From: Mustelus asterias
Taxonomy: Eukaryota
Assembly: GCF_964213995.1 (NCBI RefSeq)
Contig: NC_135815.1
Coordinates: forward strand, 56,420,001 to 56,484,000
DNA: 64,000 bases
Direction of reading: 5' to 3'
The position numbers and the translations under genes are program-made. Under the pieces are notes generated by a model. That model was not told where the DNA came from, searched no databases, and worked only from the letters and a program-made list of their open reading frames with translations. Below are positions 11,258 through 54,311 of the stretch, piece by piece (positions within the stretch are counted from its first letter, which is position 1; each line of letters begins with the position of its first letter).

Positions 11258-11331
11258 CTGTTGAGAAGTCAAGTTACAAGATCACAGCATCATACATTCA
11301 AATATCGAATGAAAAAATATACGATTTATTA
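11258..11331 (+). CDS. Kinesin-like gene exon: VEKSSYKITASYIQISNEKIYDLL
   Basis: ttttgcag acceptor, gtaagt donor; matches kinesin SYxEIYNExIYDLL; phase 1 to 0. Confidence 0.9.
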
Positions 11332-11559
11332 GTAAGTGTACCATCATTTGACAATTTTTTAAAAAACAAAAGTAGCTGAATGGAATTTAAAGTTTGAACA
11401 GAATTATTCATAAAGATATACTGATTTTACTATTTCATAATAGTAGCTCAACGCAATAATATTGTTGAAATTTGTAATTTTTTTCTAACCTGATTTACTA
11501 TTTCATGCATATGACAAGTCTTTTGCACCAACAAATCTAGCGAGAAGCAGGTAACTTAC

Positions 11560-11950
11560 AGTTGTAAGGATGTTTGGGATCTCACCAAGAGGTCCAGTGG
11601 CTTGTATGGTTAAACATAAACTGCTTATTGGTGACCCATAAGTATAAACATACCGAAGGTATTTCCATGCATAAGTGCAGTTTCCATGCTGGCTCCTTCC
11701 AGACTCTTCTCCACACAGTCTACTATCATGTAATTCTTTGTGGGCAGTACGCCAGTCCTACATATAAACCCTTGATCTACTGAGCACTTATATACTGCAC
11801 CTGCCCCATGTCAACCTCCCTGCCCCCCCAATCCTCACCCCTATCCCCCTGACCCCTTCAGACCCCTGCCACCCTTCAAGTCTCTGACTTTATAAATCAG
11901 TCTGGAGGCTTAACAATTCGTCCAGATCTCATTCTTGTCATGTTTGGAGG
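11560..11950 (-). mobile_element. Gypsy-type pol tail, polypurine tract and LTR
   Basis: Minus strand reads MTRMRSGRIVKPPD*, then a G-rich tract (11815-11875) and a ~255 bp LTR-like block with TATATAA and AATAAG. Confidence 0.6.
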
Positions 11951-13790
11951 AATGATAGTCTCAATTGCTTGGGTTATTTCTACTAGTTTGGCATTGAAAT
12001 TGTAGTATTCTGTGTATCACTTAACTGGTTGTCTCCATTTGATTGGCTTTTTGTGCTCCGTGGAATTATATGTTCTCTGTCTCTGCTTTGTTTAGACACT
12101 GGTGGTTTGTACTATTCCTTCCAAAGGGAATGTTCACTCCGTTCATTCCCACTGTGGACTTGGATTTTATTTTCTGTGAGGCCTGCCATATTCTTGCTGG
12201 GTGTTGACTTTTCAAAAATGAAACCTGTAATTGAGCTACTCACAGCTTTTCCTTTGATTGTCTCCTCTTTTCCTTCCAGCTGGTTCTTCAACCTAACAAT
12301 ATCCATGTTCCTCTTCTCTCTCAATTGGATAAGTTACAAAAATGGTAGAGAACCCTTTTTTTCTAATTTTCAAACTGGAACTGCACATTTTCTGCTTTTT
12401 GTTGCTTCTGTGCGCAAGAATTCGTCAACGTTTCCTTTTCCTCCTGTAGTCTTTCACTTTGCAGTTTGACCTCTGTATACTTCCTCATCACTTTTTCTAG
12501 GTGCTCATCCTTTTCATATATAGAATTAACATACTTGCTTTCCATTTCTTTGTATATACCTTTGGAAATATAATATTTTCCCATCTTCTAAATGTCTAAC
12601 CATTTTTTCAGCTCTGTGGTCTCTTTTTATAATTTTTGGCTTCCTTCTGGAATATTGAATATTGCTGAGTTATCTTTGTCAACTGGTTCTTCAGTTCTTT
12701 CAGAGTGACATTAAATGGGTTTTGCTGTTCTTCTTAATATTCCAGAGACCAACCTTTGACCCAAGTGATCCTTATAATGTGTGAAGGCCCTTCAACAGGC
12801 TTTTTGAAACTCAATTGCTTCATTTTTGAGTTTTCTCGTAATTCAATATAGTCTTCACGAGTTTCTTCTGCTGTTCAGCCATTCTGTTGTTCAAGACAGT
12901 CTTCAATTTTTAATGCTGCCTTTGCATTTGATCTTGAAGGACAATTAAATATTCTTTCAATTGTTTATTTTCTCGTAACTTCTTGCCAACTCACCGCGCT
13001 TCATTGTATTACTTTGTTGCTACTGATAGTTCACCTTCTTTATTAGCTTCTCATGTTTATTCAGGGTTTTGTATTATTATGTTTCAGTGCAGCAACTTCT
13101 TTAAGTATTCTTTGTACTTCCAGTTGTGCCTGGCTGTATTTCTGGTTGAGTTCTTCCAAATTAGTTTTGATATGAACATTTTCCTATGGAAGAGTTTGAT
13201 TTCCCTTTTGCAGCATTTTTTCCCTTTGCAATACTTCAGGAAGCTTACCGTCATTCAGAGCCCATTGCATTCTCCTCACTGGCACTTTTTGTTGCAGTTT
13301 GGGTAATGTGTTGGTATTTGCAAAAAGCACTATTTTTAAGCCTTTTGGCAGCTTCTTGGCCTCTTCTTTCTTCTGCACTAAACTCTTCAGTTCATGCACT
13401 TCATTGCACTGACCATTTTGTGATTTGCTTAGGAATTGTCTCCTTACATCACTATATGGATAATACTGTTCTCCAGTTCCACATTAACCCTCGCTGTGAT
13501 GAACAACCTTATACTACACCCTCCTGTGACAAAGCTTCACATTTCACTTCTTCTATCTATAGATTGTTTTCAAAACAACATTATTTTCAATGTCATCCGT
13601 TACAACCAGAACATCACTTGCTAAACAAAGCCTATCATCATTTTCAGTTCAGTTGGCATTAAATTGAGATTGTTGCAGTTTTGGGTTTTAAATAACTATT
13701 TACATTCTCTACAGTTCCACAGTAATTCTCAAATGTAGAATCACACAATGTAATCCAAAATCTGAACTTTGTTGATGCTACCCTTGATTT
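11950..13790 (-). pseudogene. Decayed coiled-coil reading frame resembling the UACA/RAI14/ANKRD24 family
   Basis: Fragments YISKGIYKEMESKYVNSIYEKDEHLEKVMRKYTEVKLQSERLQEEKETL, LEELNQKYSQAQLEVQRI and LKTVLNNRMAEQQKKLVK are colinear with the UACA coiled coil as I remember it; many stops and frameshifts. Confidence 0.55.
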
Positions 13791-14022
13791 TAAAAAAATA
13801 CTTTTTATGGGATCCGGATATGACTGGTAAGGCTGGCATTTATTGTTCATCTCCTGTGGTGGACTTTCTTCTTGAAGAACGTTCACCACAGTCCACCACT
13901 GCATCATATCTTCTGACAACCAATCAGAGAACCATGATAAGTGTCTACGCTGAGATAATGAGCAGTCTTTGACAAAAAATTGAACAGAAACATAAATTAT
14001 TCATTGTATTTCTATGTTTCAG

Positions 14023-14161
14023 AATATTCAACATTCAGAAAAAATTCGGATACATGAAAGTGATAACAATGTGTCTGTTGAAGGACTCACAGAAGTTGAT
14101 GTCGCCTCTGTAGAGGATCTCCTTCAGGTTTTTAGAAAGGGAGCTTTAAACAGAAATGCAG
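14023..14161 (+). CDS. Kinesin-like gene exon: NIQHSEKIRIHESDNNVSVEGLTEVDVASVEDLLQVFRKGALNRNA
   Basis: tttcag acceptor, gt donor; kinesin L8/alpha3 pattern IHE...V.VEGLTE..V.S.ED...G..NR; phase 0 to 1. Confidence 0.92.
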
Positions 14162-14289
14162 GTACATTAGAAAAAGTGTGAATAATATTCTTTAAAGGAA
14201 AAGAAAAATACATGAATGTCTAAAATTACATAAAAAGGGACTACAGATATTGAGTCTAATTTAATATTTCATATGTAATAATGTGAAAA

Positions 14290-14512
14290 GAGTATTTGAG
14301 GACCAGGATCTCAACCCCCTTGGCTAAGGTCATGGTTTACACGGCAGCAGTGATTCCTGTGCTTCTATATGCTTTATAGATTTGGACAACATACAGCAGG
14401 CACCTCAAAACACTGGGGAAGTCCCACCAGCAGTGCCTTTGCACAATCTTTCAAACCTGAGACAAAGTGTGCAGTCCAACAGCAACTTCCTGTGTCAAGC
14501 AAATATTGAGGT
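14290..14512 (+). mobile_element. RTE-clade LINE fragment
   Basis: Translates to KVMVYTAAVIPVLLYA...WTTYSRHLKTL..HQQCL. Confidence 0.7.
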
Positions 14513-14520
14513 CCTAATTC

Positions 14521-14990
14521 TGTTATTATCATTGGGGTCTTAGCTTAGGTTGTCCTTGGTTTGGATTGACAGAGACTGCTGAAGGCAGATAAACTTCAAC
14601 TTTTATTAAACATTCTTCTATGTACAGGATAAGCTTGCCAGAAGGCTTTACATACAACTATCTCTTTGCATGCTCTGTTCTCGTCTGATCTTACATCACT
14701 GATGACATAGACTGTCTATTTACATCAACTGTTTACACTACAGAAAGAATTTTACCATCCCGCCCGTTACGGAAATTGTAGCAGGTGGAGTACAGACCAC
14801 GCAAAGGTACGTTGACCTCGGGTGGGATTTCCCAGTACTGGGGCGAGCGCTGCTGGAAAATCCCGCCCTATATCTCCCCCGAAGTCTCTGACTTTCCTAG
14901 ATACATCGGGTGGGACCTTGAGCCCACTCCATCTGTCTATGAAATTTCCAGCGTGGGCTCAAGATGTGGTGAAATCCAGAAATTGTGAAT
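14521..14990 (-). mobile_element. Gypsy-type LTR (14521-14741) with PPT/pol tail, interrupted by a short insert
   Basis: TG...CA block with AATAAA on the minus strand; purine tract at about 14872-14880 on the minus strand. Confidence 0.5.
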
Positions 14991-15399
14991 CTTGCTGGTG
15001 AGATCACTTCCAATTTTCGCCCCACCTTGCTGGCAACATAATCAGTTTCTCACCCACAATGGGCATGAACCTGATTTACATACATTTTAATGGATTTTAA
15101 TATGATTAAGATGCCCCCGCGCCAGATATTGATCTCTTGCCATATAATCATACCTCGCCGACGTGGGGTCATGTTTACAATAGGTCCAACCAAATGTGAA
15201 CCTCTCATGGCATAAAGGTGAGTATAGCCCCCAGGGGAGAGGGACATGGCCAGCCTGTGCCCTGGCAATGCCCCCTACCACTGACCCAGGCACAAGTTGG
15301 CACTGCCAGGTTGCTGCCAGGCATGTAGCAAGATCCAACTACGTCCGGCTGCCTCCAGGCAAACCCCCCCACCTCCACCCTCACCCTCCCACGAACACC

Positions 15400-15890
15400 A
15401 AGGTGAAGACAATGTAAGACCAGCGATCTGGGCCTATAACCTACCCCAGATCTCAAAGACTGGATACAGTATGCCTCTTCAAACTTGATATGCCCAGCCT
15501 TAAAATCGAGAGTACGAAAGCATGGCAGCCAGTTCTCAAATTCGGCTGAGAAGTTAGCCTCAGCGCCTCTCAGAAGATCGGGTGCACCCCACCTCTCCGA
15601 ATTGGCTAGGATGTCTGACATACCATGCAACAGGATTTCCAAGGACTGAAGGTGAGCCTCCACTGAGGAAACTGCCCACTCGACTGACAGGATTCTTTCC
15701 TCTGCTTCATCCATTATCTTTCAGATATTTTGAGGTTCATCAAAATGAGCATCAATGATTTGCGCCAAGGAGCCTAGACCGTTATCCACAACTTTACCCA
15801 CAATGGCAGCCATCTTCTTGATGCCTGCAACATCACCTGAGTGTGAGCTCACTCACCAGCTAAATCATCACGATGAACGAAGTCCCGTCT
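15400..15890 (-). mobile_element. L1-clade ORF1 fragment
   Basis: MDEAEERILSVE...FENWLP...IKFEEAY...RPRSLV fits the L1 ORF1p coiled-coil/RRM pattern. Confidence 0.7.
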
Positions 15891-15899
15891 TGACTTTAC

Positions 15900-16800
15900 T
15901 TAACAAGGATCTTCCAGGAACATAGCATAGATTATACACTCCAGGACCTCTCTTCAAAGTTTTGAAGAGATGTCACTACTCCATGCCAAACATTGAAGGA
16001 ATTTTGCCACAACTTGTTGAAGAAAGTCTTTACTACTGGATGCTGGCAAGTGAAGTTCATTGAAAGTAGCAGTTTGTTGACTATGATCTGGGCGCTCTTT
16101 GAAAGGTACAGACGTTTTGCCAATTGGCATTTCTACTGCTCCAGAATAGTATCAACACAAACAGCATGCGATAGCCAAAGATCTACCAGGAGTGGAAGTA
16201 ATTGTGGATGATCTCCTTGTCTATGGATGTGGAAATATGATGAAAGAAGCCATCACAAACATGATCAGAATCTAGTGAGACTGCTGGAGAAAGCTGGCCA
16301 GATGGGCCAGAAGCTGAATGCTCTCAACAGAAGTCCAAAGATGTGCGGGTTAGGTGGATTGGCCATGCTAAATTGCACCTTAGTGTCAGGGGGACTAGCT
16401 AGGGTAAATGCATGGGTTTATGGGGATAGGGCCTAGGTGGGATTGTGGTTGGTGCATACCTGAGGGGCTGAATGGCCTCCTTCTGCACTGTAGGATTCTA
16501 TGATTCTATGCAACCTACTTGGCAACTTGGAATCTGTGTGGAGAAGCTGTCACCTTGGTCCTTCACAGCAGACAGATGATGAGGAAGATTTGCTTTCACA
16601 AATCACATTGTGAACTGAACAACCAGCCAACCCTGTGGTCAACGATTCCCCAATGAAGACAACGGATCAGTGGTAACATTCACCATAGCAATGACATTCT
16701 TGGAGAGGCAACATTACCCCAGGAACGAATGGAGACTAGACAAGCAGTCAAAAAAGCCCACATGCATATCATTAGAAAAACTGAGCACTTTAAAGATTAT
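15900..16800 (+). mobile_element. Decayed Gypsy pol fragments (RT and tail) split by a SINE (16332-16510)
   Basis: DLPGVEVIVDDLLVYG and HDQNLVRLLE; tail IIRKTEHFKDY. Confidence 0.75.
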
Positions 16801-17715
16801 GGGTGTAAATTTCTATATTGTGCTGAGGTGAGAAAACTGGCATGCAGCTCACAGGCTGCACAGCTAGGGTTTCTCTCCAGATCATCCAGCACTCTATGCA
16901 GAGAAATCTGGAGGTGTGGCCCACACTGCCAAGCTGACAGAGCAGGGCCAGAAAAAGCCAACAGCCAGGACTCCCGAGATTGGGGTGCTGTTTTTAAAGG
17001 GCATTCTAATCTCCAATATAAAACAAAGGAACTCAGCTCCCACGGACATGGGACCCCCTCCCCCTCCCCCCATCCTAGATGCATAAGGAAGACCCCCTCA
17101 CATGCACAAGAATCCACATATACAAGGGAAACCCCTCCCACCTCTTCGTGGGGCACTGCCAGGGTACTGCTCAGGCATGTCTCTCTCGCCTCCTGGGGCT
17201 ATATTTACCTCTGCATCTCCAGCAGGTTCCCTTTATTTTTGAAAAGCCGTTGTAGACCTTGCTGATACGACATCATGTTGGCAAGGTGGGAATTCCTGAT
17301 CTGGGGGGAATGATATGGTAGGGAAAGCCACTAATTACATGAAAATTTATTGAAATATCATTCCTGACCTTCCTGGGAGAGAACCTCATTATGTCACCAG
17401 CAGGAGGTAGGGAGAATTGGAATACGAGATCTTGCCGACAAGATTCTCATTTTCCGAGTCTCACAAGATTTTGTACCTGCATTAGCCACGAGTGCATACA
17501 GCGATATGGGTGCAAAATTGCAGCGTAAGTGTGCAAGCATGTGTAGGGACAGCCCAAAGTGGGACAGACTATAATAAACAAACATTTATTATATATTTTT
17601 GCACATGTGTGGTGATTTTCATTGTAGATCATGAATATGCATGATCTGCAACTGCAAATTATAGTATATTAAGGTTGTGTTTCCTTTTTATGAAAGAGGG
17701 AATGATTGGAGTGCC

Positions 17716-17935
17716 TTTGATTTGATTTATTATTGTCACATGTATTAGTATACAGTGAAAAGTATTGTTTCTTGCATGCATTACAGACAAAGCATACCGT
17801 TCATCAAGACGGAAAGGAGAGAGTGCAGAATGTAGAGTTACAGTCATAGCGAGAGTGTAGAGAAAGATCAACTTAATGCGAGGTATGTCCATTCAAAAGT
17901 CTGATGGCAGCAGGACAGAAGCTGTTCTTGGATCG
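17716..17935 (-). mobile_element. Rex1/Babar-like LINE 3' end
   Basis: Same sequence as 28092-28310; (aatca)n tail on the minus strand. Confidence 0.7.
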
Positions 17936-18561
17936 GCGCACTGTGGCTGTCCATAGACTTCCCATAGTTACATTACCTCTGTCATCATTTGTATAAAGGC
18001 TTGGCAGCATCCACAACTTGGAGCAGATACATTAGTAGATGGTTGTTGCTGAGTCTGTGGCCAATGATGAGGATGAAACCATCAAAAAAGTCTATAAACT
18101 TGCACTTAATCATCCTTCTCACATTCTTTTCCCCCCTCATCTCACACATATTCTCATTCACTTGTTGCAGATGAATGCTGCAGTGAAAGCTTAGACTGCT
18201 GTTATACAAGGTCAGCTTGCTGGCATGCAGTTTCATAGCTGCAGTACCATAGCTGCAGTTACCAATGTACTAAGGGGTTTCCCGAGTGTCACAGTAGTGC
18301 AGCAATCTGTACTCCAACACATTCGGATCACTGAAGCACTGCTTCAAGGGAATGACTGTGGCTTCATTCTGAAGTTCACATTATGGGGGTGATCTTACCA
18401 AGAGAATTCTCAGTCCCAAACGAGTGTGAAAATGGGAAAAAATTGCACTGGTTTTTGGGTGACTTAAAAGTCGAATCTTACCACACTCTGTGAAAAACGT
18501 CTTGACAGACTTGAAATTCACCAGAAGGAGGAGTGGGCAAGGCCTAAATCGTCCACTGTCA

Positions 18562-18905
18562 GGGCGGCACGGTAGCACAGTGGTTAGCACTGCTGCTTCA
18601 CAGCTCCAGGGACCTGGGTTCGATTCCCGGCTTGGGTCACTGTCTGTGTGGAGTTTGCACATTCTCCTCGTGTCTGCATGGGTTTCCTCCCACAGTCCAA
18701 AGATGTGCGGGTTAGGTTGATTGGCCATGCTAAAAATTGCCCTTAGTGTCCTGGGATGCGTAGGTTAGAGGGATTAGTGGGTAAATATGTAGGGATATGG
18801 GGGTAGGGCCTGGGTGGGATTGTGGTCGGTGCAGACTCGATGGGCCGAATGGCCTCTTTCTGTACTGTAGGGTTTCTATGATTTCTATGATTCTATGATT
18901 TCTAT
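18562..18905 (+). mobile_element. HE1-like V-SINE
   Basis: A/B boxes; tail of ctatgatt repeats. Confidence 0.88.
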
Positions 18906-18906
18906 A

Positions 18907-21395
18907 AACGCCAACATTGCATTTGCCTTCCTAATTGCCGACTAAACCTGCACGTTAACCTTAAGAGAATCTTGTACAATGACTCCCAAGTCCCTTTGTG
19001 TTTCTGATTTCCTGAGCATTTTCCCATTTAGAAAATAGTCAGTGCCTCCATTCCTCCTTCCAAAGTGCATAACCTCACACTTTTCCACATTGTATTCCAT
19101 CTGCCATTTCTTTGCCCACTCTCCTAACCTGTCCAAGTCCTTCTGCAGCCCCCCGCTGCTTCCTCAATACTACCTGTCCCTCTACATATCTTTGTATCAT
19201 CTGCAACTTTAGTAACAGTGCCATCAGTTTCTTCCTCCAAATCGTTAATGTATATTGTGAAAAGTTATGGTCCCAGCACTGACCCCTGAGGTACACCACT
19301 AGTCACCACTAGCCATCTTGAAAAAAAACCCTTTCTCTCCACTCTCTGCCTTCTGCCAGTCAGCCAATCCTCTATCCATACCAGGATTTTACCCTAAACA
19401 CCATGGGCACTTAACTTATTTAACAGTCTCCTATGCGACACCTTGTCAAAGGCCTTCTGGAAATCTAAATAAATCACATCCACTGGTTCTCCTTTATCTA
19501 ACTTCCTTGTTACCTCCTCAAAGAACTCTAACAGATTTGTTAGACATGACCTCCCCTTGACAAAGCCGTGCTGACTCAGTCCTACTTTATCAAGTACTCT
19601 GTGATCTCATCTTTAATAATGGATTCTAGAATCTTGCCAATGACCGAAGTCAGGCTAACCAGCCTATAATTTCCCATCTGCTGCCTCCCTCCCTTCTTAA
19701 ACAGTGGCGTTACAATAGCTACTTTCTAGTCCTCTGGTACTCTCCCTGCCTCCAGTGATTCCTGAAAGATCACCGCCAATGCCTCCACAACATTCTCAGC
19801 TATCTCTTTTAGAACCCTGAGGTGTAGTCCATCTGATCCAGGTGATTTATCCACCTTCAGACCTTTCAGTTTTCCCAGAACCTTCTCCTTAGTTATGGCC
19901 ATTACACTGTGCCCCCGACTCTCCTGAAGCTCTGGCATCCCACTGGTGTCTTCCACCGTGAAGATGGATGCAAAGTAACTATTCAGTTCCTCTGCCATTT
20001 CTTTGTTTCCTATTATTACTTCTCCAGCCTCATTTTCCAGTGGTCCAATGCTCTCTCTTACCTTTTATATATTGAAAAAAATTCTTCCTATCTTCTTTTA
20101 TATTACCAGCTAGCTTACACTCATATTTCATTTTCTCCCCCCTTATTGCTTTTTTAGTTGTCCTCTGCTCACTTTTAAAGGCTTCCCAATCCTCTGGCTT
20201 CCCACTAATCCTTGCCACTTCGTATGCTTTTTTTTTGCTTTTATGCTGTCCTTGACTTCCCTCATCAGCCGAGGATGCCTCGTCCTCCCCTTAGCATGTT
20301 GCCTCCTCCTTGGGATGAATTTCTGTTGTGCCTCCCGAATAACTCTCAAAAACCCCTGCCATTGCTGTTCCACTGTCTTCCCTGCTAGGCTCCCTTTCCA
20401 ATCAACTCTGGCCAGCTCCTCCCTCATGTCTTTGTAGTTACCTTTATTTAATTGTAATACCATTACATCTGATTCCAGCTTCTCCTTCTCAAACTGCAGG
20501 GTAAATTCTATCATATTGTGGTCACTGCTCACTCAGGGTTCCTTCACCTTAAGTTCCCAAATCAAGTCTGCCTCATTACATATCACCAAATCCAGAATTG
20601 CCTGTCCCCTTGTAGGCTCTGTCACAAGCTGCTCCAAAAAACCATCTCTCAGACATTTCACAAATTCCTTTTCTTGGGATCCACTACCTACCTGATTTTC
20701 CCAGTCCACCTGCATATTGAAGTCCCCCATGATTATTGTAATATTGCCTTTTTTATATGCCTTTTCTATCTCCTGATTTGTTTTCTGCCCCACATCCTGA
20801 CTACTGCTAGGGAGCCTGTACATAACTCCCATCAGCATCTTTTTACCTTTGCGATTCCTCAACTCTACCCACACAGATTCTAAGCCTTCTAATCCTGTAT
20901 CTTGTCATCGACTTCTTGCTATCGATTTAACTTCATTCCTTACTAACAATGCAGCCCCTCCGCCTTTGCCCATCTGCCTGTCCTTCCGATAGGACACATC
21001 CTTGGATATTTATATCCCAGCCCTGATCCCCTTGCAGACACGTCTCTGTGGTGCCCACAACATCGTACCGGCCAATTTCAATGTGCGCAACAAGCTCATT
21101 TACCTTATTCCGTATGCTGCACGCATTTAGGTACAACACCCTCAGTCTTGCATTGACCACCTCCCTTCTCATACTTATCACTTTTTTTGCTCTGCCTGAG
21201 GTTAGATTCCTGCCACTTTCTATACTCTCTGCTCTATTATGTGGTCTGGAACCTTTACTAACCTCTCCTGAGCCCTCAACTCCATTAACCTGCACTTCTA
21301 CCCTCTCCTTTAACTTTGATTTTCTAATTCTCCATACAACTGAACAACACCCCCCCTCCCCCCCACCCCCCACCCAACTATTCAGTTTAAAGCTC
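18907..21395 (-). mobile_element. Decayed CR1 LINE: endonuclease through RT, 3' end missing
   Basis: RVLYLNACSIRNK...YDVVGTTET, IMGDFN, SDHNMIEF, KSPGSDGLH, WQMEYNVEKC in ORFs 20933, 20533, 20143, 19726, 18942. Confidence 0.93.
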
Positions 21396-23960: not shown

Positions 23961-24081
23961 TTAGGTTCCACCAGTTTGCTCACATGTAAAAAGCACTTTT
24001 TTCACACACCCCCACCCCCGCCCCCCCACCCCCAATCCTCCCCCCCCAATCCCCTAACACAAAATAGTCCAGCATTCAAAA

Positions 24082-26891: not shown

Positions 26892-26929
26892 AAATAATCT
26901 GCAATGCAGTTGTTTGTTTTAGAAAGCCA

Positions 26930-27498: not shown

Positions 27499-27582
27499 GT
27501 GTGTCTAAAGGGGACTTCAGTAACAGCAGTCACACGTTGTTTTACATTTCTATTGTTCATACAAATATCAACACAGAAAAAT
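27499..27582 (+). CDS. Kinesin-like gene exon (switch I region): GVSKGDFSNSSHTLFYISIVHTNINTEK
   Basis: Polypyrimidine tract plus cag, gtaaga donor; phase 1 to 1; SH-T-LF-x-I pattern of beta6. Confidence 0.88.
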
Positions 27583-30098: not shown

Positions 30099-30136
30099 CT
30101 GAAGAAAAATGCATAACAGCAGGCAAGCTTACACTG
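30099..30136 (+). CDS. Kinesin-like gene 38 nt exon: SEEKCITAGKLTL
   Basis: tttag acceptor, gtaaga donor; GKLxL precedes VDLAGS in kinesins; phase 1 to 0. Confidence 0.88.
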
Positions 30137-30222: not shown

Positions 30223-30246
30223 GTGGATTTAGCTGGATCTGGTCAA
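30223..30246 (+). CDS. Kinesin-like gene 24 nt micro-exon (switch II): VDLAGSGQ
   Basis: tttcttctttag acceptor, gtaagt donor; phase 0 to 0. Confidence 0.9.
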
Positions 30247-34451: not shown

Positions 34452-37400
34452 GGGCCGCGATTCTCCCATTGCGACCTGCAACTTTTCTGGCGGGTCAGGC
34501 CGGGAGATGTGCGTGTCGGCCATTTTGTGGGTTCCCCGACAGTTTTTACGACCTGCGCGCATCTCCCAGCTGGAGAAAAATGGCGCCGCCGGGAACCCGC
34601 TGAAAATCGGTGGGCCGCTGTTTAGCATGAGTTTACATACCTCTGCATGCTATTATCGGAATCCACATGGCAATCTCCACCCATGTCTGCGTCTCCCACC
34701 TCTTTGGCGTGATGTAATTTTGGCGCGAACCAGAACAGGTATTTAAAAGTTGCAACCTGGCGTGGCAGCCTTGAACTCACGTGAAGAGATAGGTGTTGCC
34801 AGCGGAGCGTGGGGGATGTTGCAGGCAGATCCTGGAGATGCCTGGTGGCCTTCCTCCAGCTGCCCATTGACGAGTGACATCTGTGGGGGGCGGCGGGGCG
34901 GGGGGGGGGGGGGGGGGGGCGGCAGGGGGGGGGCAGGGGGGGGGGGCGCTGTTGGGGGGGCTTCCATTTCCTCACAACTCCTTGGGTGAGGTTCTGTCAG
35001 GGAGTCCTGCTCCCCCCGCCCGCCCCCCCCCCCCCACCCCACCCAAGCAGCGCTGAAGCTGACTTGGGAAGCAGCCTTGAGGGTTCCCGCTCCCCCCCCC
35101 TACCGCCTGCCCTCCCTCCAAGCAGTGCTGAAGCGCACTGTGAGAGGCAGCGTCGAGGGCTCCTGCTTCCCCCCCACCCCGCCTCCAAGCAGCGCTGAAG
35201 CTGACTGTAGGAAGCAGTCTTGAGGGCTCCTGCTTCCTCCCAACCCCCACCCCCCCCCTCCAAGCAGCGCTGAAGCTGACTGTGAGAGGCAGCGTCGAGC
35301 GCTCCCGCACCCCCCACCCCCCCACCCCTCCTCCAAGCAGCGCTGTAGCTGACTGTGAGAGGCAGCGTCGAGGGCTCCCGTTTCCCCCACCCCTCCTCCA
35401 AGCAGCGCTGAAGCTGACTGTGAGAGACAGTGGTGAGGGCTCCCGCTTCCTCCCACCCTCCACAGCACTTTGCAGTGGCATTGTCTTTCTGCGGGGTGTG
35501 GTCAGGGACTTACTAAGTGCTGGTGTTCTGGGGTGGGAATGAGTGTACCATGTGCTGACTGAGGCCTAACCAGATGAAGAAGCTGCTGCTCCAGGCCGGG
35601 TTGCAGAGATTCAGACATGGACTGCATGGAATCTGCAGTCACTGGTTACACATATGCTGGTGATTTGCAGTCTGTCCCTGCCCTGTGACATGGACCAGGA
35701 ACACATGCCTGTAACGGATGCTGCAGTTGCGCACAAAGCAATGGCTCAAGGGTGCACATTGCCCACGTCTGCACACTGACCTGCATAATCTGTGCCAGCA
35801 TTTGTCATGATGGGAATCTCACACAACCCTAATCGGGCCATGCATGGCACCATGGATTGTGTGGGGTTGCCAGCTCCCACAAGTGGGGGTTCTGGCCCAA
35901 GTGAGGGATTGGAGTGGTGCTGGGTCTATGCAGCCAATGATAATAATCCGTCATTCTAGGCTCTTTCCAAACTCCACTGTGCAGATGGATCTCAGTTTGC
36001 TTGATCTGGAGCTGGCCATGTTGGTGGCAGCAGAGGCGGAGGAGGAAGAGGTGGCGGTGACTCAGGAGGTGACGGGCGTGGAGAGACCACCACAAGAGCA
36101 GCCACCACCAGACCCTCAGGAAGGAGGGCAGCAGGCTGCTGCTGAGGGCCAGGAGGTGGGTGAACATGCTCCCAAGAGGTTGCACAGAAGGCGGAGGGTC
36201 CCAAGGCCAAGGAGGTACAGGCCCCGCAATTCCTTCAAGGCCCTCTCGGAGGAGATGTGCCGTCGCCGGCTGCGCTTGTCCAAGACCACGGTGCGTCACA
36301 TTTGTGAGGTGCTCTCACACCTGGCACCTTGGGGGAGCGGCGGCCACCTGTTCCCTGTGGACGTGAAGGTGTTGGCAGCCTCAATGTCTATGCCTCCGGA
36401 TCATTCCAGGCTCCCAGTGGCGACCGAGCTGGGATCTCCCAGGCCTCCGTGCACAGATGTGTGCAGCAGGTCACAGATGCCCTGTATGCCCGGGCAGGGC
36501 AGTTCATTAATTTCGATATGGGCCGTGCACAGCAGGAGGCTCGGGCTGTCGGGTTTGCATCCATCGCCGGGATCCCGAATGTGCAGGGCCCAGTGGATGG
36601 CACGCACATCGCCATGCGGACCCCCCATGCAGGGCCGCAGCAATTTGAACAGGAAGGAGTTCCACTCCCTGAACGTTCAAATTGTTTGCGACCACTGACT
36701 CAAGACCATGTAGCTCGATGCATGCCACCCAGGGAGTGTCCATGACAGCTTTGTGATCCAGCAGTCGGACATCCCTATGCTCTTTGAAGACCTGCCTAGG
36801 CTCCCGGGATGGCTACTGGGTGACAAGGGCTACCCACTAAGGTCATGGCTGATGACACCTGTGCGGAGGCCCCAGACCGAGGCGGAGACCCGCTATAACA
36901 AGACGCATGCAGCCACCCGGTCCGTGGTTGAACGGTGCATCGGCCTGTTGAAGATGAGGTTCCGCTGCTTGGACCGCTCTGTGGGAGGGTGCCCTCCAGT
37001 ATGACCCTGTGCGTGCTTCATGCATTGTTATCATTTGCTGCGCTCTGCACAACATCGCCCAGCAGCGGGGAGACCAGCTAGAGCAGGAGGAGGAGCAGCA
37101 AGGGGGCGAGGTGGGTATCCCACCACATGAAGAGCCAGAGGAAAGACAGTGGCTGTCAACGGCAGGTGTCCGGCAAGGAAGGGCAGCGAGGGATACCTTG
37201 ATTGCAGCCCGCTTCACCCAACTGGTGCTGTGCAGTGAGGAGGGTACAGCCAACGCACAACCACCACCGCCCAGGAGCACGTGCAGCTGCTATTCCCCCT
37301 CCAAATCAACCTGGGCCCTCAAACCACCACATCACCCTTCCCCTGCTCCTGTCACCCCACCACCCTATCCCCCAGAAACATGCGATCCTATTAATGTGCC

Positions 37401-39047: not shown

Positions 39048-40648
39048 AGTGGAAATGTGCTCTCAAACAGTGCAAACAGACAAAATCAAGTTGCAGAATA
39101 CTGATTAGAATGCGAATCCTACAGCCAGCCAGGTCTTAAAGGTACAGACAATGTGGGTGGAGGGAACATTAAACACAGGTTAAAGAAATGTGTATTGTCT
39201 CCAGACAGAACAGCTAGTGAGATTCTACAAGCCCAGGAGGCAAGCTGTGGGGGTTACTGATAATGTGACATAAATCCAACATCCCGGTTTAGGCCATCCT
39301 CATGTGTGCGGAACTTGGCTATCAGTTTCTGCTCAGCGACTCTGCGCTGTCGTGAAGGCCACCTTGGAGAACGCTTACCTGAAGATCCAAGGCTGAATGC
39401 CCGTGGCTGCTGAAGTGCTCCCCCACAGGAAGAGAACAGTCTTGCCTGGTGATTGTCGAGCGGTGTTCATTCATCCGTTGTCGTAGTGTCTGCATGGTTT
39501 CCCCAATGTACCATGCCTCGGGACATCCTTTCCTGCAGCGTATCAGGTAGATAATGTTGGCCGATGCTCCACTTCTCCAGCTTCCACCCTAAACATGTTA
39601 AAGAAGCCATCCCCTACGGACAAGCCCTCCGAATACACAGGATCTGCACAGATGAGGAGGATCGCAACAGACACCTCCAGACGCTGAAAGATGTCCTCAT
39701 AAGAACAGGATATAGCGCTCGACTCATCGATCAACAGTTCCGACGCGCCACAGCGAAAAACCGCACCGACCTTCTCAGAAGACAAACACGGGACACGGTG
39801 GACAGAGTACCCTTCGTCGTCCAGTACTTCCCCAGAGCGGAGAAGCTACGGCATCTCCTCCAGAGCCTTCAACATGTCATAGATGAAGACGAACATCTCG
39901 CCAAGGCCATCCCCACACCCCCACTTCTTGCCTTCAAACAACCACGCAGCCTCAAACAGACCATTGTACGCAGCAAACTACCCAGCCTTCAGGAGAACAG
40001 TGACCACAACACCACACAACTCTGCCACAGCAACCTCTGCAAGACGTGCCGGATCATCGACACAGATGCCATCATCTCACGTGAGAACACCATCTACCAG
40101 GTACACGGTACCTACTCTTGCAACTCGGCCAACATTGTCTACCTGATACTCTGCAGGAAAGGATGTCCCGAGGCATGGTACATTGGGGAAACCATGCAGA
40201 CACTACGACAACGGATGAATGAACACCGCTCGACAATCACCAGGCAAGACTGTTCTCTTCCTGTGGGGGAGCACTTCAGCAGTCACGGGCATTCAGCCTT
40301 GGATCTTCAGGTAAGCGTTCTCCAAGGTGGCCTTCACGACACACGACAGCGCAGAGTCGCTGAGCAGAAACTGATAGCCAAGTTCCGCACACATGAGGAC
40401 GGCCTAAACCGGGATGTTGGATTTATGTCACATTATCAGTAACCCCCACAGCTTGCCTCCTGGGCTTGTAGAATCTCACTAGCTGTTCTGTCTGGAGACA
40501 ATACACGTTTCTTTAACCTGTGTTTAATGTTCCCTCCACCCACATTGTCTGTACCTTTAAGACCTGGCTGGCTGTAGGATTCGCATTCTAATCAGTATTC
40601 TGCAACTTGATTTTGTCTGTTTGCACTGTTTGAGAGCACATTTCCACT

Positions 40649-46430: not shown

Positions 46431-47184
46431 TTCCTCAATTTGCTATGATTCTAGATGGGCTATCCCCATATTGTCTGCCTCCATGTCTGAGCCAAAATCT
46501 TCATTGTCCAGTTGATGGGCTCTTGAGTTTTTTTAGAGGGCTGAGTTTCCCGTCATCATATGTGGAAACACATACATAACAAAAGATGGGGGTGCGGCCA
46601 CAATAGGATGCATGTGATAAACTCACAATGGCCAAAATTTTCTGGCCATTCACACCAACGGATCTTTTGGTCCTACTGATGACGCATCCCTGCTGCAGGT
46701 TTTCGGTGGTGGGGATGCATTCAACAGGAAACCCCATTGACAACAGCGGGACCAGAAGATCCCGTCGCCGGCCAATGGCAAAGCACACAGCAGAGCACGT
46801 AGAAAATCCTGTCCTTTGTCTCAGTTCTGAGGGAAATTAACAAGCTGGACATGGCATTAGAAAGAGGAGTCATTAAACATGGTGATAATTGATAAACAAA
46901 TTAATTTAGAGAGGACAAAACCCCTGGATCAAATGGATTGCATCTATAAATATTTAAAAAAAGAGTTAAGGAAAATATATCAGAGGCATTATTTTATATA
47001 TATATATAAAACTCATTAGTAAAAGAAACAGCTAATGTCATTCCTATATTGAAAAGGAAGATAAAAAGCACATTTAAGGAACTAGAGACTAGTTAATGTA
47101 ACATGATAGTGGAAGTTTCACTTAAAGAAAAACATCTAGAAATTGAAAATGTAATTGAGAAAGAGAGAATCAAAGAAAGAAAAA

Positions 47185-47365
47185 ACATGTATTTATATAG
47201 CACCGTTCACAACCTCAGGACATCCCAAAATGACTTACAACCACATACTTTACTATTAAGGTGTAGTCACTATTGTAAATGTAGATGTAGGAACCTATCA
47301 GTACACAGCAAAGTCCCACAAAGACTGACATATGATATTGACTTAATAATATTTTTCCAGTGATG
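47185..47365 (-). mobile_element. Deu-domain SINE 3' relic
   Basis: Similar to 10652-10790, with tail gtatttatatagcacc. Confidence 0.55.
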
Positions 47366-47465
47366 CTGACACCAGGAGTAGTTGAGGCCAATCACATGGT
47401 TTCATTTAAGGAGAAGCTAGACAAACATTTGAGAAGTTAAGGAATAGAAGGGTATGTTAATAGGG

Positions 47466-49665
47466 TGAATGACTCAGGGTATAATGACTCAGGGTATAAT
47501 GACTCAGGAAGTCTGACTGAAAAGGAACATAGTTTATTCCAGAATGCAAATTAAATAACTACTATTTTGTACACATACTAATCCCAGTCCTGGGCCAGCC
47601 TCATAAAAGACTCAGGTAATGATTTCTAGCTGGGCAGGCCACTGCCTGTTACCGGAGGAACTCAACGAACCCCACAGGGAGATGAATCAATGGTTGCTCA
47701 TGGACTTCATGGAGGTTATCACACCTCTTCCCCCCCTGAGTCTGAGGATTTCACCTCACTCCCATGATGATGGGGCTTTCTCCGTCTCTTTGCCCATGGC
47801 CTCATCTCCATCGCTTGGGGGGTCTGGTCGGGGGGAGGGGGCAGGGGCATGTAATGGATCGATTAACACATCTTCCATGAAGAATGTTGAAGAGCCATGA
47901 CAGGGTGCTTGTTCTCGGTGTCAACCTCTGACTGGGTGTGTGCAGCCTCTGTTTCCATGTCCGAGCCAAAATTTTCATTGTCCAGGTGATGGGCTCCTGA
48001 GGTCTTTAGAGGGCTGAGTTTCCTGTCATCATATGCAGCACAATCCTATAATTACAAAGGAAACATATGAGCTTTGTATCAAGAGGACTTGTGCTTTGCT
48101 TTTCATGCCACTTTTGAATGACTGGATCGCCCGCTCAGCCAGGCCATTTGAGGACAGGTGGTAGAGTGCCAGCAGAGTTGCCAAGTTTGTTATGAATTTT
48201 CCATAATAATTTATGAGACCTAGGAAAGACTTCAACTCTGTTGTATTCCTTGAAGCCAGAGTCCCTTTTATGGCTTCACCTTCTCTTTGATAGGGTGTAA
48301 TCCATTCTTGTCAACTCTATACCTGTTTTAAAAAAATCTTTTTTCCCTTTTTAATCAGATGCCAGTATTAACAAAAAGCTGCAAAATCTCTAAATGTTCC
48401 TTTGCAGTAGCTCCTGAGATTAAAATGTCATCCGGATAGACTGCCACTCTGGGCACCCTTGAAGGATGTTCTCCATCACCCTTTGAAAAATGGCACTAGC
48501 CAAAGACACCCCAAAGGGCAAGCAAGTATGCTCATACAGTCCTTTGTGTGTATTTACGGTGACATACTTCCTGGATGACACCTCAAGCTTCAGTTGGATG
48601 TAGGCGTGTCTCATGTCTAATTTGGAAAATATGTGACTCCCAGCCAGCTATGCACACAAATCTTTAATGCGTGGCATAGGGTGTCTGTCTAAGTGAGAGG
48701 CTTTGTTGAACATCAACTTATAATCCCCACAGAGACGAACTGAATTGTCAGACATTGAAATTGGGACTACTGGCACAGCCCATTCAGCAAATTATATTGG
48801 GCAGATAATGCCAAGTTCCTCTAGACCTTCCAATTCAGCTTCTATTTTGGCATGTCGGGCATAGGGAACTTTGTTCTGTGGCATGGAGGTCATCTAAGGC
48901 TGAGGAGGTACCATCTATTGACCCTTGAAGCTCCTGGGCTCCTCTTTCCGTGTTTTCATGTGAAACGGACAATCCTATTGCTTTTTTGAAGTCCAGATTT
49001 GGTTCAACTAGTAGCTTCCCTGGATTGCAACATTATTAATTCCATGTACTAAACAATCCCTTAACAGTTCCCGAAGTGCCGGCCTGTGCTCACAGTGCCA
49101 CATCAATTTCTGCAGTCTCATCAAGAATTCAGCGACTGGTTCCCCAGGGACTCAATTTGCTGTGTCAAACCTATAGCATTGCAATATAACTGATGGTTTA
49201 GGGTTGTAGTGGCCCGATATCTACCAATTTGTCAAAGGATTTTGAATCTGGGGCTGCTAGATAGGTTAAACTTTTTACTTTACGATGTGAAAAGTTGGGG
49301 CCCCACAAGTGTACTGGGGCTAATCCTCCACAGCCACATCATAAGTTTCCAGTTTCCAAAACAATGGCATTTTCAATATCTCAGAAACTTTTCTTGCTAC
49401 TCATCGCTAATGTAATAACTCTGGAAGTCCAACTGGAAAGAAATATAATTTATTACAGAATGCAAAGTAAAACCACTACCATGGTATACACACACTTGTC
49501 CCTGCCTGGAACTGCAGTACAGCAGGCCCAGGCCTGGGCCTGCCTTATAAAAGGCTCAGGTAATGCGTCCCTGCTGGGCCGGCCACTGCCTGTTACCAGG
49601 GGAACTCATACTCAACAAGCACAATCAATCAGTGATCCCTCATGGACCTCGTGTGGGTTATCACA
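47466..49665 (-). mobile_element. Internally deleted Gypsy element with both LTRs, inserted in a CR1 tail
   Basis: LTRs 47466-47723 and 49411-49665; PPT 47724-47737; PBS-like 49400-49410; TSD TAGGG; TVNTHKGLY..LPFGV, SFLGLINYYGKF, SSNGLAER. Confidence 0.88.
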
Positions 49666-49817
49666 TAGGGTGAGGTGAAGAGAGGTAGAAAGAGGTTTGC
49701 ATAAAACATGAACACAAGCATAGACCAGTTGGGCTGAATGAAGTAGATTGGATGTAAATTGGAAATAATGTACTAAACACTTGCAATTAGCAATTGATAT
49801 TTCTTCTCTGTTTACAG

Positions 49818-49937
49818 GAAAACAGCAAAGGAGTGAGAATGGGTTTAGAGCAAGGAAAGAAATGTTTAATGAATATTCGAGAAACAAATCTGTATGAGGT
49901 GAAGAATGTAAAACGATCCCTGACTTTATTTAGAAAT
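49818..49937 (+). CDS. Kinesin-like gene exon (L11/alpha4): ENSKGVRMGLEQGKKCLMNIRETNLYEVKNVKRSLTLFRN
   Basis: tttacag acceptor, gtaaga donor, 40 codons; E.KNVKRSL corresponds to ExxxINxSL. Confidence 0.85.
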
Positions 49938-50041
49938 GTAAGAATTATTTTTGGCAGTACAACTTGAAAAGGCAAAGTTGTATATGTACTAAAAATGTTG
50001 CTATTATATAAACAATAAAATATGACCTGAAAATTTCAGGG

Positions 50042-50874
50042 TGCAGGATACCTGCTTGCATTAGTGTTGGACCATACCCTCAAAGCTTCCCTTGTTAAAG
50101 CCCAGGCCAGAAACTCCAAGGTGTTTTGCGAAGTTAAGTTTTACATTTGATTTTTGGCATTGGTGAGCGCAAGGTGTTTCACTCCAGGTATGATTCAGGT
50201 GACCCACTAGGAAGCTTTTATCAAACAAAGTTTATTTTAAGAACACAGTTAGAATATAACAAAACAGTATAACAAAGAATCAGCATAACTCTTACCAATT
50301 ACAAGACTTAAACATGGCACAGTATAACTCATAACAGCTAGTTATCTCTGTTGTTCCAATTTAAAAGCACTACCCATAGACATACACCCTTCATCAGAAT
50401 TAGTTAGCATTAAAACCAGTATGCTCATGAGAACTAGATTTCCAGCTTTAGACAGAAATGCAAACAGTCGTTTTTGGGGAAGGATATATCCTCAAGACAG
50501 CAGAACAGAGAAGTAAACCTAGACTTGAGCAGCTTCCAGTCTTTAGACTTCAGAGACAGGAAAGGATAAGTCTCTCTGCAGCTTCCAAAAAAGCATCTGA
50601 AAAACTAAGCTGGAATTCTCTATGAAAACATAGCTGTCCCTAGTCATATGACCTGATCTGTCAATTATCCCAATCAAGCTCTACTCTGCAATCCCAGGGG
50701 AACATTAAAACAACAGAACACTGCATTAGTTCAGATTAAAACAAACATGATGTCAATTATAGATTTCTACAACAATAGAGGACACTGAGGCTCCAGCAAA
50801 ATGCCAGAGAGTGTCGAAATATCCTGCAAGAAACATGATTAAAATACATTTCTTAAAGGCACATTACCGTCACA
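50042..50874 (-). mobile_element. Probable solo ERV LTR
   Basis: Minus strand begins tgtgacggtaatgtgcctttaag; AATAAA on the minus strand near 50231. Confidence 0.55.
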
Positions 50875-51199
50875 CCCTGCTGATCTCACCAAAGTTTGCA
50901 GGTCAGAAGGAGACCCCCTAATTCTCATACTAATGTTGGGCATCAGTGCTACTGGGATATCTAAAGGATCTACAATTGTGAACACGCTGGAAAATCTAGG
51001 GGATGTGAGTGAGCTGGGAAAGTGTGTGAGAGGGGGCTGGTTGTTAATTTCCCCCCTTTTTGGGATAAGTTGATGATGGCCTCAGTAGCCCTTCTTATAA
51101 GGCAAAATTGTTTTTGTATGCACAAACATTAGCAAATAATATATGACATTTTTGTAAGGTAACTTCAATGCAATTCCTTTAGAAGACATTCTGCTCCCC

Positions 51200-51545
51200 T
51201 TCAGGAACTAGCCTGGACCATGAGACGGTTCCCACATTGCAGGAGGTTCTTTCTGAAAATCTTGTCAAACCCAAAAATAGGAAGTTGTGCCCATAGTGCT
51301 GTTAGTGACTAAGATCAGTCACAGAGATCAGAGAAACTGTGAATGGGTGGCTGGCCTACTTGGTCTGATTAAGCATATCTCCACTGACTATGCACTATTG
51401 CCCACTGAAGGCCTATAAACATGGTAACTTCCAGAGTAGGTAGTCCTTGTCCCAGCAAGTCTCTCCCTTCCTTAGCTGTTTGGAAATCTGCAGTCATTCC
51501 ATTGAACACCTGCCTCATTTGAGCAAGAATCCACCAGAGCATATA
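51200..51545 (-). mobile_element. Old Harbinger transposase relic
   Basis: Minus strand (L)GDKDYLL near 51430-51460, resembling LLGDKGYPL. Confidence 0.4.
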
Positions 51546-51951
51546 AAAACTAGATCAGGACCCATATATGTATGCTACTGTTTAGATACACCCAATACCA
51601 TTCCTGCGAACACCTATTGAAGTTATGATAAGAATACTCTAAAATGGCCGTAGGTTTGTGGGTGGGGCTGGCTCTTTAACATTTGATTTGCATATGATAT
51701 TCCTGTCTCTGTGACTACACCTATGTTAAGGTCGGTCATTTTCTATCTGAGGGTATTGGACCTGTAATCTTTATGGTTCCTTCAGAAAACCAGTTGAAGC
51801 CACATCTCAGTAGTTTGCCCTTGCTTTATCATCCCTTCCATAAGGCTCTTGAAACTAGAATCATAAAAGAGGTTTTATTTTATTATACAAATCCAAAGGA
51901 ACTGGAATGAAATAAGGGTTAAAATAATTTTTATATCTGCTTCTTTCTTAG

Positions 51952-52031
51952 GTTGTTTTTGCATTAAGTACACCTGGATGTCAGCACATACCCTATAGAG
52001 AATCTAAACTTACACGGATTCTGCAAGATTG
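51952..52031 (+). CDS. Kinesin-like gene exon (L12/alpha5): VVFALSTPGCQHIPYRESKLTRILQDC
   Basis: Canonical HIPYRESKLTRxLQD; ttag acceptor, gtatgg donor; phase 0 to 2. Confidence 0.95.
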
Positions 52032-52137
52032 GTATGGATTAAAATGTTTCTGTAGAAAGGAGAGAGTGGAAATGGGGAAGTCAATTTGTGATTGTGTTTA
52101 ACTTAAAAATAAAATATAACACCTGGCAAGAGATACT

Positions 52138-53932
52138 GGGGGTGATTTTCCGGCCAGGCACGCTCAGGCACAGATTGCCCTGTGGCTGCACGGGATTGGA
52201 GAATCACAGGGGAAGGGCTTAGCACATTTAGAGCCGATGAGAACTCCCTTTGGGATTCTCCCAATCTCCCAGCCTGGACGTATTCCGGTTACTGTCCAGT
52301 GAGAGCGAAAACCAGTTTAGCATATTTAATATTTGTTTAAATATGCTTAGTCAGTTTCATGCCAGATTCCTTCTGCTCCGAGGATTCACTGACCCTCGAG
52401 CGCAGCGGGAATCTGGCGTGAATCACTGCTGGTTTCCAAAAAAGGAAACCAGTCATGATAGCCATGCCTGGGAGGCCATTGAAACCCCCTGGTGGTCAGG
52501 GACATGGCAGTGTTGCCCCCTGGCACCCTGGCAGTGCCAACCTGGTATTGCCAAACTGGCGGTGCTGCCGGAATGCCAAAGGGACAGAGGGGCGGAGCCT
52601 GAATGGGGCAGGGCATGAAGGGGTGAGGCAAAAAGGGGTAGCGCATGAAGGGGGACCCATTGGGAGTCCCCGATGCTGGCGATCTATGTTCAGTGGGATT
52701 AGGAGATCAAGCGGGAGGGAGTTCTATGTTCAGGGTGGGAGGGGTCATGCCATCAATAGGGTGTCCTGATGTCTGTGGTGGGGTGGGGGGGAGGGTGTCG
52801 TCAATTTCACTTTGATATCAGGGTTCCCTTTAAAAACGGCATCCCAATGTTTGTGAAGCCTGTCTTGCCTGTGTGGTTAGGCCCCGCCCCTCTCTGAATC
52901 GGTGCAAATATTTTCCCCCTCTCAAAAAATGACTAAGTGCAAGAAGATCGTAATCAGATTCGTACCAATTTTCTCATCCGATATTTAGGACGTGACCTCA
53001 TGACCTTGTCCTGCCCGTCGTTCGGCAAGGGAAGGTGGTAGGATTGCGTGAGAGGAGAAAAATCGGGTTCGCACCTGTTTTCTCGCTTCACACAATCTTA
53101 CTGGCCCTGTTTTGCCGGTGAAATCGGCTTCGTGCCCAGGAAGGGCACAAAACCAATGCTTCACATGTCATTCGCAATTCCCGAATGCTATCGTCTGGGC
53201 TCACTTACACTTAGCCCCTTGACAGCTGAGTTTCATACCTTCAAATATCACAGCTGGTCTCCACCAGCAGAGACCAGATGTGATGGCCTCGCCAGAGAGA
53301 TTGGAGGCCATTGAAGCCCCTTTGGAGGTCCATGGCATGGCCGGACAGTTCCCACTTGGCACCCTGGCACTGTCCAGAGACCACCATAACTGTGTCAGGG
53401 GTAGTGCCAAGGAGGTGAGGCCTGAGTGGGAATGGAGCTTCAGTGGGGTTGGAGCAATGATGGGGGGAGGCAAGGGGGCAGCTCCGCAGGGGGCGGAGGG
53501 AGCTCTGCAGACGGGGGCTGGGGAGGACTGGCATAGGGAGCAATGAACAATCAGAGGGAGCAATACAGGGAACGATCAGTGGGGGGGATGGAGGGAATGC
53601 ACAGAGAGCAATTGGTTGAATGGGGAAGGGAAGGGACCCACACAGAGAGCAATCAGCGGGGTGGGGTGATTTCATTGGGTGGGTTGGGGGGTGGCAGGAG
53701 GCCTCCTAGGAGATAGTGGCACCTATGCAATGGCACCCCAAGCACTCTGCAGCCAGCTTAACCATTGAGCATAGGCTCCGCACCCCCTTCCTGGCGAGAA
53801 TCGCATCTGGTCTTTTTTTTACACTAAGTGCCATAAGATTGCAACTCACGGCTTGCCAAAAAAACTGGTGCCATTCTCTCCCGTTTTCTCGCTCATTCAG
53901 GCATTTAGAATTTTTTTCATGAGATTGCACCC
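52138..53932. mobile_element. One or two Harbinger-like non-autonomous elements
   Basis: Termini ggggtgattttcc and gagattgcaccc; shared ggcagtgcc/ggcactgcc motifs with 15200, 45540 and 59930. Confidence 0.55.
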
Positions 53933-54154
53933 TTAGTCATTTTTTAGTGAACCATCCCCATTGTACAAGATGATCCAAAAGCTGTTGTTTGCTCTTAATT
54001 CCGGCATCTTGGAATCAATTGCAAAATAGATGTTCTGAGACTGGAATGTGATGGGTTATACATTTAGCCTTTTTATTTAGCTAACTTGGTTGTTCTGTGA
54101 AATGTAAATTTCTTCATACAATAGCTCAATTAACATGACTGATCCTTCTTTCAG

Positions 54155-54311
54155 CCTGGGTGGAAACTGCGTAACATCCATGATTGTGACAGTTTCTTCA
54201 GGTTGTGCATCAGTACATGAAACCCTCAGCATTTTGCAGTTTGCTACCCGAGCAAGATCCATTGTAAACTGTGCAGGGAAAAACATACATAAACGGAGTG
54301 GTAAAGACCAG
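54155..54311 (+). CDS. Kinesin-like gene exon (end of motor): LGGNCVTSMIVTVSSGCASVHETLSILQFATRARSIVNCAGKNIHKRSGKDQ
   Basis: LGGN..T.MI..VS.....ETLS.L.FA.RA; cag acceptor; CAG|gtaggt donor keeps frame with the next exon. Confidence 0.93.

Follow-up and report, generated by a model that had tools for sequence, protein, structure and literature searches.

Non-motile kinesins are an already known kind. KIF26B, which has been reported to lack ATPase activity, nevertheless remains on microtubules (PMC3387196). In the motor domain, Y138, R203, E236, E250, and N255 (human kinesin-1 numbering, used throughout) are described as forming a closed switch network, and the N255K mutant is reported to bind microtubules tightly in every nucleotide state, with stimulated ADP release cut up to 1000-fold (PMC4383081). 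Kar3 N650K and Ncd N600K show the same behavior (PMC3000839), and these Asn-to-Lys mutants bind tightly but do not support gliding (PMC3000839, PMC4383081). The switch Arg, Gly, and Glu have been linked to the catalytic waters, and Ala mutants at these positions had very low stimulated ATPase (PMC7931232). Here, we analyze a kinesin-like gene from the shark Mustelus asterias that lies across a 64,000-nucleotide stretch of contig NC_135815.1 (positions 56,420,001 to 56,484,000; hereafter, the window). The shark protein resembles the engineered mutants (kinesin-1 N255K and E236A; Kar3 N650K, E631A, and R598A; Ncd N600K) in that N255 is Lys and both E236 and R203 are replaced. In its family, however, such changes arose in nature, occur together, and are conserved throughout the jawed vertebrates. 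Our comparisons indicate that the gene is intact and conserved and that its head likely binds microtubules without stepping, which likely anchors a conserved coiled-coil tail.

Switch residues of the shark motor domain

Eight motor exons in the window (11258-54311; Table 1) are all bounded by AG and GT and together hold 238 stop-free codons. As the original prediction had it, the exons are in frame, and their product is identical to residues 186-423 of P0009, a public NCBI gene model labelled Mustelus asterias. P0009 matches the kinesin motor family of Pfam (PF00225) at 271 bits. The register was set by HMMER alignment to KIF5C. In this alignment, switch I is one residue shorter and has Gly, Asn, and Ser at N198, S202, and R203, so the NxxSSR motif is absent, and switch II has Gly at E236 and departs from DxxGxE. 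The alignment bears out the degenerate switch I and the DLAGSG switch II that had been read from the DNA. In alpha4, Lys takes the place of the linchpin Asn, N255. Three of the five switch-network residues are therefore replaced, one of them by N255K itself. The substitution of VKRSL for INxSL had been seen correctly beforehand; its identity with the natural N255K had been overlooked. QISNE had also been counted as a lesion. The Tyr-to-Ser change is derived, but the Gln is not decay, because QIYNE is found in 38 of the 50 nearest intact kinesins. The microtubule-binding motif of L12/alpha5 and the alpha6 motif are conserved, as stated earlier. The upstream exon that encodes the P-loop (G000:C15:56417931-56418081, where G000 is this genome) reads GTPGSGKS, which is intact and fits GxxxxGK[TS].

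As controls, SSRSH and DLAGSE were retained in 50 of 50 kinesins outside the family that came from a profile search. Among 40 other kinesin loci in this genome, we found SSRSH in 32 (the other 8 were unrecovered or variant) and the switch II Glu in 35 of the 35 that were recovered at that position (5 were unrecovered). No alternative SSRSH or DLAGSE exon with kinesin context, which would have restored a normal motor, was found in the 464-kb region around the locus. Nine candidate acceptors could restore the Glu codon, and among the four of these with at least 25 open codons, none was kinesin-like. Contigs of X6 and X9 (the same sample) and of X5 overlap the bins of three exons, with the splice junctions themselves unseen and the kinds of run unrecorded. 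For the two small exons, the ratio of depths (0.70-0.73) is nearer to the value for a 24-base exon (0.63-0.71) than to that for a 19-base exon (0.50-0.55).

The motor is 94% identical to that of the catshark orthologue, versus 79% in the linker, and the gene is retained from tunicates to teleosts. Both observations support the earlier proposal of a selected, probably non-motile kinesin fold rather than random decay. The closest functional analogy is KIF26B, from the Kinesin-11 group (KIF26A/KIF26B, Smy1), with which the shark protein has the kinesin fold in common. By its motifs the protein is not KIF26, which the original prediction also judged it not to resemble: its switch II and P-loop lead-in differ from the KIF26 type. 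KIF26 is without IFAYGQT and departs from DLAGSE in another way (DLGSCE, with the Glu kept), whereas the shark protein keeps DLAGS, the P-loop, and a TYG lead-in, loses the Glu, and has its head at the N terminus. A separate kinesin locus with DLGSCE, and hence the Glu, is present in this genome at G000:C18:56.2 Mb; we take it to be KIF26.

Members of the orthogroup, head and tail

By sequence comparison, the shark gene is a member of the orthogroup of zebrafish si:ch211-63b16.4 and not a decaying copy. A search with one exon, followed by a profile built from four proteins, found members in lampreys, catsharks, chimaera, bichir, sturgeons, gar, bowfin, eels, osteoglossomorphs, clupeids, and otophysans, including zebrafish. 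Euteleosts, coelacanth, lungfish, and tetrapods were absent from the 120 matches listed in the profile search. A profile search of the full library (best 150 of 63,715 matches) added tunicate members (Ciona, Styela, and two unnamed) and two unnamed tail-only proteins; among these 150 matches there was no non-chordate member. Nine other high-scoring proteins (P0170, P0172, P0175, P0177-P0180, P0182, and P0183) were excluded as members, as they have intact switches and are without the family tail. The gene and its kinesin domain are already annotated, and the gene is already called kinesin-like. However, the NCBI names (Klp68D, klp-20, KIF3C, kinesin heavy chain, and KIN-7O) are inconsistent best hits, and no public name reflects that catalytic residues are lost, where the family comes from, or that tetrapods have tail-only orthologues. 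We found no published work on this orthogroup in the open-licence main texts that were searched (supplements were generally outside this search), and si:ch211-63b16.4 was absent from the searchable supplements of four zebrafish cilia or testis papers.

We tallied residues in 66 aligned family rows (90% clusters, which are not independent, as some species are repeated). At E236, there were 53 Gly, 5 Ala, 3 Ser, no Glu, and 5 gaps, so Glu is absent from 61 of 61 covered vertebrate rows. Asn was found at N198 in 0 of 65 rows, and the span from R190 to H205 has 15 residues in 61 of 66 rows (versus 16 in 50 of 50 intact kinesins). G234 is replaced by Ser in 53 of 61 rows. N255 is Lys in 58 of 63 rows and Asn in 5, which are lamprey rows. 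D231 is kept in 59 of 63 rows and H205 in 64 of 65, and the equivalents of P276, Y277, R278, K281, R284, and E311, which are on the microtubule face or in the core, are invariant (65 of 65). The R203 position is more variable, with 37 Lys, 24 Arg, 2 Ser (both of the shark rows), and 2 others among 65 rows. The original prediction argued from the loss of both partners of the switch salt bridge. That argument is not supported for the family: the Arg is replaced by Ser in sharks only, so joint loss of Arg and Glu is not its hallmark. Judging from the aligned rows, the lesions that are family-wide in vertebrates are the loss of Glu, the loss of N198, and the short switch I. The tunicates Ciona and Styela share the head and both tail domains, and they have a much shorter switch I and an altered L12; in Ciona, the Glu is replaced by Asn.

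The P-loop GK[ST] is present in 41 of 62 covered rows and missing in 21 (characiforms, catfishes, and osteoglossomorphs). Across 25 chosen family rows, mean conservation was 0.71 for the P-loop, 0.73 for the head overall, and 0.94 for L12/alpha5. The corresponding values in 50 intact kinesins were 0.96, 0.63, and 0.90.

Structure prediction (AlphaFold) gave a head that is mostly above 90 in predicted local distance difference test score (pLDDT) and, for residues 429-576, scores below 50. A Foldseek search recovered the kinesin fold, with target-normalised template modelling scores of up to 0.90. The roughly 150 residues of low pLDDT separate the head from the first coil, and there is no neck coil directly behind the head, which suggests that two heads would not be coupled as they are in walking dimers. 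In the far tail, the prediction shows one long helix together with a helical pair at the C terminus, in which ten residues are invariant across 40 sequences. The tail matched no Pfam family and no PDB entry by sequence or by fold, and its Atlas matches were generic coiled coils. An Atlas search with the zebrafish protein returned its own cluster and generic kinesins only. With the C-terminal 60 residues as the query (against proteins of up to 500 residues), we obtained 15 matches, 14 of them tail-only. These 14, from turtles, a lizard, axolotl, and tailed frog, align across the whole tail and are without a head; amphibians and reptiles appear to keep only the tail. The fifteenth match was a chimaeric sawshark model. 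In the sawshark UniRef entry named histone H2B (P0137), which is chimaeric, the final 90 residues belong to the family tail.

Probable relation to Kinesin-17

Kinesin-17 was described as restricted to ciliated organisms (PMC2867816, PMC4947347), and the 2010 survey notes no functional data for it (PMC2867816). Two other papers appear to apply the name kinesin-17 to KIF17. None of the 21 Kinesin-17 rows in the survey's table is from an animal (Wickstead et al. 2010, PMC2867816). Monosiga 25905, a Monosiga DEP/ankyrin kinesin, and ciliate QIYNE proteins are filed as Kinesin-17 in its supplement (PMC2867816 supplement). We found intact Kinesin-17-like motors in the sponges Corticium and Ephydatia (P0085, P0090, and P0107), two of them with ankyrin tails, and therefore Kinesin-17 is present in animals. 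No intact Kinesin-17-like locus was found among the kinesin loci listed in this genome, which is a lower bound.

The family of the shark gene quite probably arose from opisthokont Kinesin-17. In a FastTree phylogeny of 78 rows, it falls inside Kinesin-17, beside the choanoflagellate and sponge members. IQ-TREE on 52 of these rows (26 were dropped for run time) supported the Kinesin-17 nesting at 98/96 and the grouping with opisthokont members at 97/92. A quick tree of 50 rows that included tunicates again placed the family within Kinesin-17, and a careful tree of 38 of those rows gave 99/96 and 99/94 for this nesting. The strongly supported groups (98/96 and 99/96) include the reference Kinesin-17 Monosiga 25905 (Monbr_25905, P0108). 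In the 78-row, 52-row, and 50-row trees, the family was never sister to KIF26. Outgroups were paralogues assembled from this genome, whose family names we presume from their motifs. The family has 8 signature columns in common with opisthokont Kinesin-17 versus 1-3 with kinesin-1 to -4. Among the shared features are the Gln of L7, the Phe of alpha4, and a TPG turn before L12. This Phe stands four residues past Ser-Leu in the exon at 49818..49937 (model P0001 has a shorter form of the exon). There are also differences: the Kinesin-17 rows that we analyzed all keep SSRSH, DLAGSE, and INxSL, whereas the present family lost switch residues, and many Kinesin-17 proteins have DEP/ankyrin tails or an immediate neck coil, whereas the present family has its own tail. 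No DEP or ankyrin match in Pfam was found in P0009, P0008, P0051, P0040, P0069, P0301, or P0176; some Kinesin-17 proteins lack this tail too.

Several results weigh against this ancestry. The approximately unbiased (AU) test did not reject a grouping of the family with kinesin-1 on the 52-row set (p = 0.08) or with a KIF26-like fragment of 167 columns (p = 0.13). The same test on a reduced set did reject kinesin-1 (p = 0.018), but 12 of 50 rows had been dropped with the earlier trees known. Raw similarity to Kinesin-17 and to kinesin-1 is almost equal, the Kinesin-17 rows were chosen by their likeness to the family, and the aligning profile was also rich in Kinesin-17. It is thus conceivable, if unlikely, that the family is a divergent offshoot of kinesin-1 or of another family, which would leave the pseudo-motor reading unaffected. 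Its best PDB sequence matches are kinesin-1 (there is no Kinesin-17 entry among the matches listed), in line with the near-equal similarity and the unrejected grouping. The four trees that put the family beside choanoflagellate and sponge Kinesin-17, the 8 versus 2 signature columns, and the rejection in the reduced set argue the other way.

Proposed mechanism, alternatives, and genomic setting

With the Glu and the Asn, Ser, and Arg of switch I lost and Lys at N255, the head likely binds microtubules without stepping. The shark head may still hold nucleotide, because the P-loop Lys/Ser and D231 are kept, but would be unable to close the switch network. In that case, we predict very low microtubule-stimulated ATPase and binding that is largely insensitive to nucleotide. 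The head would act as a static grip on the microtubule, and the tail (CxxC, coiled coils, and C-terminal helical pair) would carry partner binding. Such a function in the tail would account for its persistence where some teleosts have lost the P-loop and tetrapods the whole head. That the protein acts at cilia or flagella is a weaker guess, drawn solely from the ancestry, because Kinesin-17 is confined to ciliated organisms. At somewhat less than even chances, Kinesin-17 survived in chordates as a pseudo-motor that was dismantled stepwise and became a static anchor on ciliary or sperm-tail microtubules with its tail retained. In such a series, switch I would have been shortened, the Glu lost in vertebrates, N255K fixed in jawed vertebrates, and the Arg lost in sharks; teleosts would have lost the P-loop on two or more occasions and tetrapods the entire head, with the nameless tail module kept.

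Some observations count against a static grip. Sharks retain the P-loop Lys/Ser, D231, and G234. The replacement residues of switch II are themselves conserved (0.93 in the family), which could mean a remodelled rather than a dead site. Lampreys keep the Arg and N255, and Styela keeps both the switch Arg and the Glu, which leaves room for slow hydrolysis in some members and for doubt about the ancestral state. The substitutions in combination may weaken microtubule binding, and Kar3 R598A reportedly binds microtubules weakly. Finally, the apparent head loss in tetrapods is read from gene models, and the shark locus itself is split in two models.

Among the alternatives, a slow nucleotide-gated binder, with slow ATP turnover and affinity switching but no transport, seems rather improbable. 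KIF7 is a non-processive kinesin whose microtubule affinity is switched by nucleotide, and a similar protein would fit the P-loop Lys and Thr/Ser in 41 of 62 rows, the retention of D231 and H205, the conserved replacement switch residues, and the Arg and Glu of Styela. It is harder to reconcile with the absence of Glu from every vertebrate row, with N255K, which abolishes microtubule coupling in kinesin-1, and with the 21 rows that lost the P-loop and otherwise keep the head. We consider it less probable again that the head no longer binds microtubules and has become a vestige, or a module for binding proteins, that is being lost, with the tail alone mattering. The headless tetrapod models, the altered L12 of tunicates, and the lack of a member in euteleosts, birds, and mammals among the matches listed would agree with such a loss, but 65 of 65 vertebrate rows have the same microtubule-facing residues in L12/alpha5, in contrast to a drifting P-loop, and the heads of two shark families are 94% identical. 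A pseudogene, or a wrong splice model that conceals a normal motor, is scarcely credible: the junctions are unseen in reads, the Gly codon opens with GT (a potential donor), and the annotation splits the locus, but the frame is open through eight exons, the same lesions recur in models from dozens of species, no restoring exon was found, and the locus is single copy.

The gene runs beyond both ends of the window. Upstream of the window start, four more motor exons are found in the nearest 4 kb or so, and the last tail exon is about 35 kb downstream of the window end. Each of two exon queries matched this locus alone in the genome, which is the basis for calling it single copy. NCBI divides the locus in two: P0009, whose end is a read-through into the intron beyond 62041, and P0272, which covers the downstream tail. 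The tail exon that comes next has a weak donor, and the shark and chimaera models both read through it. On G000:C15, the N-terminal exon of the catshark orthologue was matched twice before the window start, at distances of about 38.2 kb (79% match) and 35.3 kb (72% match), and P0009 starts at a different exon, 4.5 kb upstream, which points to alternative or duplicated first exons.

Table 1. Exons of the kinesin-like gene in the window.
Position	Strand	Feature	Remarks
11258..11331	+	Motor exon, beta4/L7	QISNE; Q in common with Kinesin-17
14023..14161	+	Motor exon, L8 to alpha3 and start of switch I	R190 equivalent retained
27499..27582	+	Motor exon, degenerate switch I	FSNSSH; N198, S202, and R203 equivalents replaced; bin covered by X6, X9, and X5 contigs
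30099..30136	+	Motor exon, beta7	38 bases
30223..30246	+	Switch II exon	24 bases; DLAGSG (Gly at E236); strong GTAAGT donor
49818..49937	+	L11 and alpha4 exon	Natural N255K (NVKRSL)
51952..52031	+	L12/alpha5 microtubule-binding exon	IPYRESKLTR; single copy in genome
54155..54311	+	beta8, alpha6, and neck-linker-like exon	
58898..58981	+	Linker exon	Predicted disordered
61472..62041	+	Long exon	Conserved TCLPP motif, disordered linker, CxxC, first coiled coil

Repeats are common around these exons: 43% of the window recurs within the 464-kb region. Two degenerate open frames (35800-37400, which is inside the 19.6-kb intron, and 55800-56900) resemble Harbinger/PIF-type transposase genes. We take other fragments to be a Gypsy-like integrase (8310-9215), a Penelope-like reverse transcriptase (39555-40442), and CR1/L2-like reverse transcriptases (718-1257, 4165-5400, 60300-61067, and 62456-63334). 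Elsewhere in the genome, a kinesin-like exon on the minus strand (L107, G000:C23:60546700-60547200) has an unusual P-loop lead-in, VFGETDSGKT, and is possibly from another divergent kinesin. Two related kinesin loci (L048 and L050-L051, at G000:C15:13.05 Mb and C18:55.3 Mb) have intact switches and form a long branch beside kinesin-3; we presume that they are perhaps KIF28-like.

Overall, one more, as yet unnamed, family joins the vertebrate kinesins, and with it a second route, besides KIF26, from kinesin to non-motor. Natural variants in Styela, lamprey, shark, zebrafish, catfish, and turtle tell apart the contributions of R203, E236, N255, the P-loop, and the head as a whole, so that long-standing ideas about switch coupling become testable on evolved proteins. 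If the stepwise dismantling is true, the family would be a living series of the classic uncoupling mutants, and if the proposed ancestry is true, zebrafish si:ch211-63b16.4 would offer a genetic handle on a Kinesin-17 descendant.

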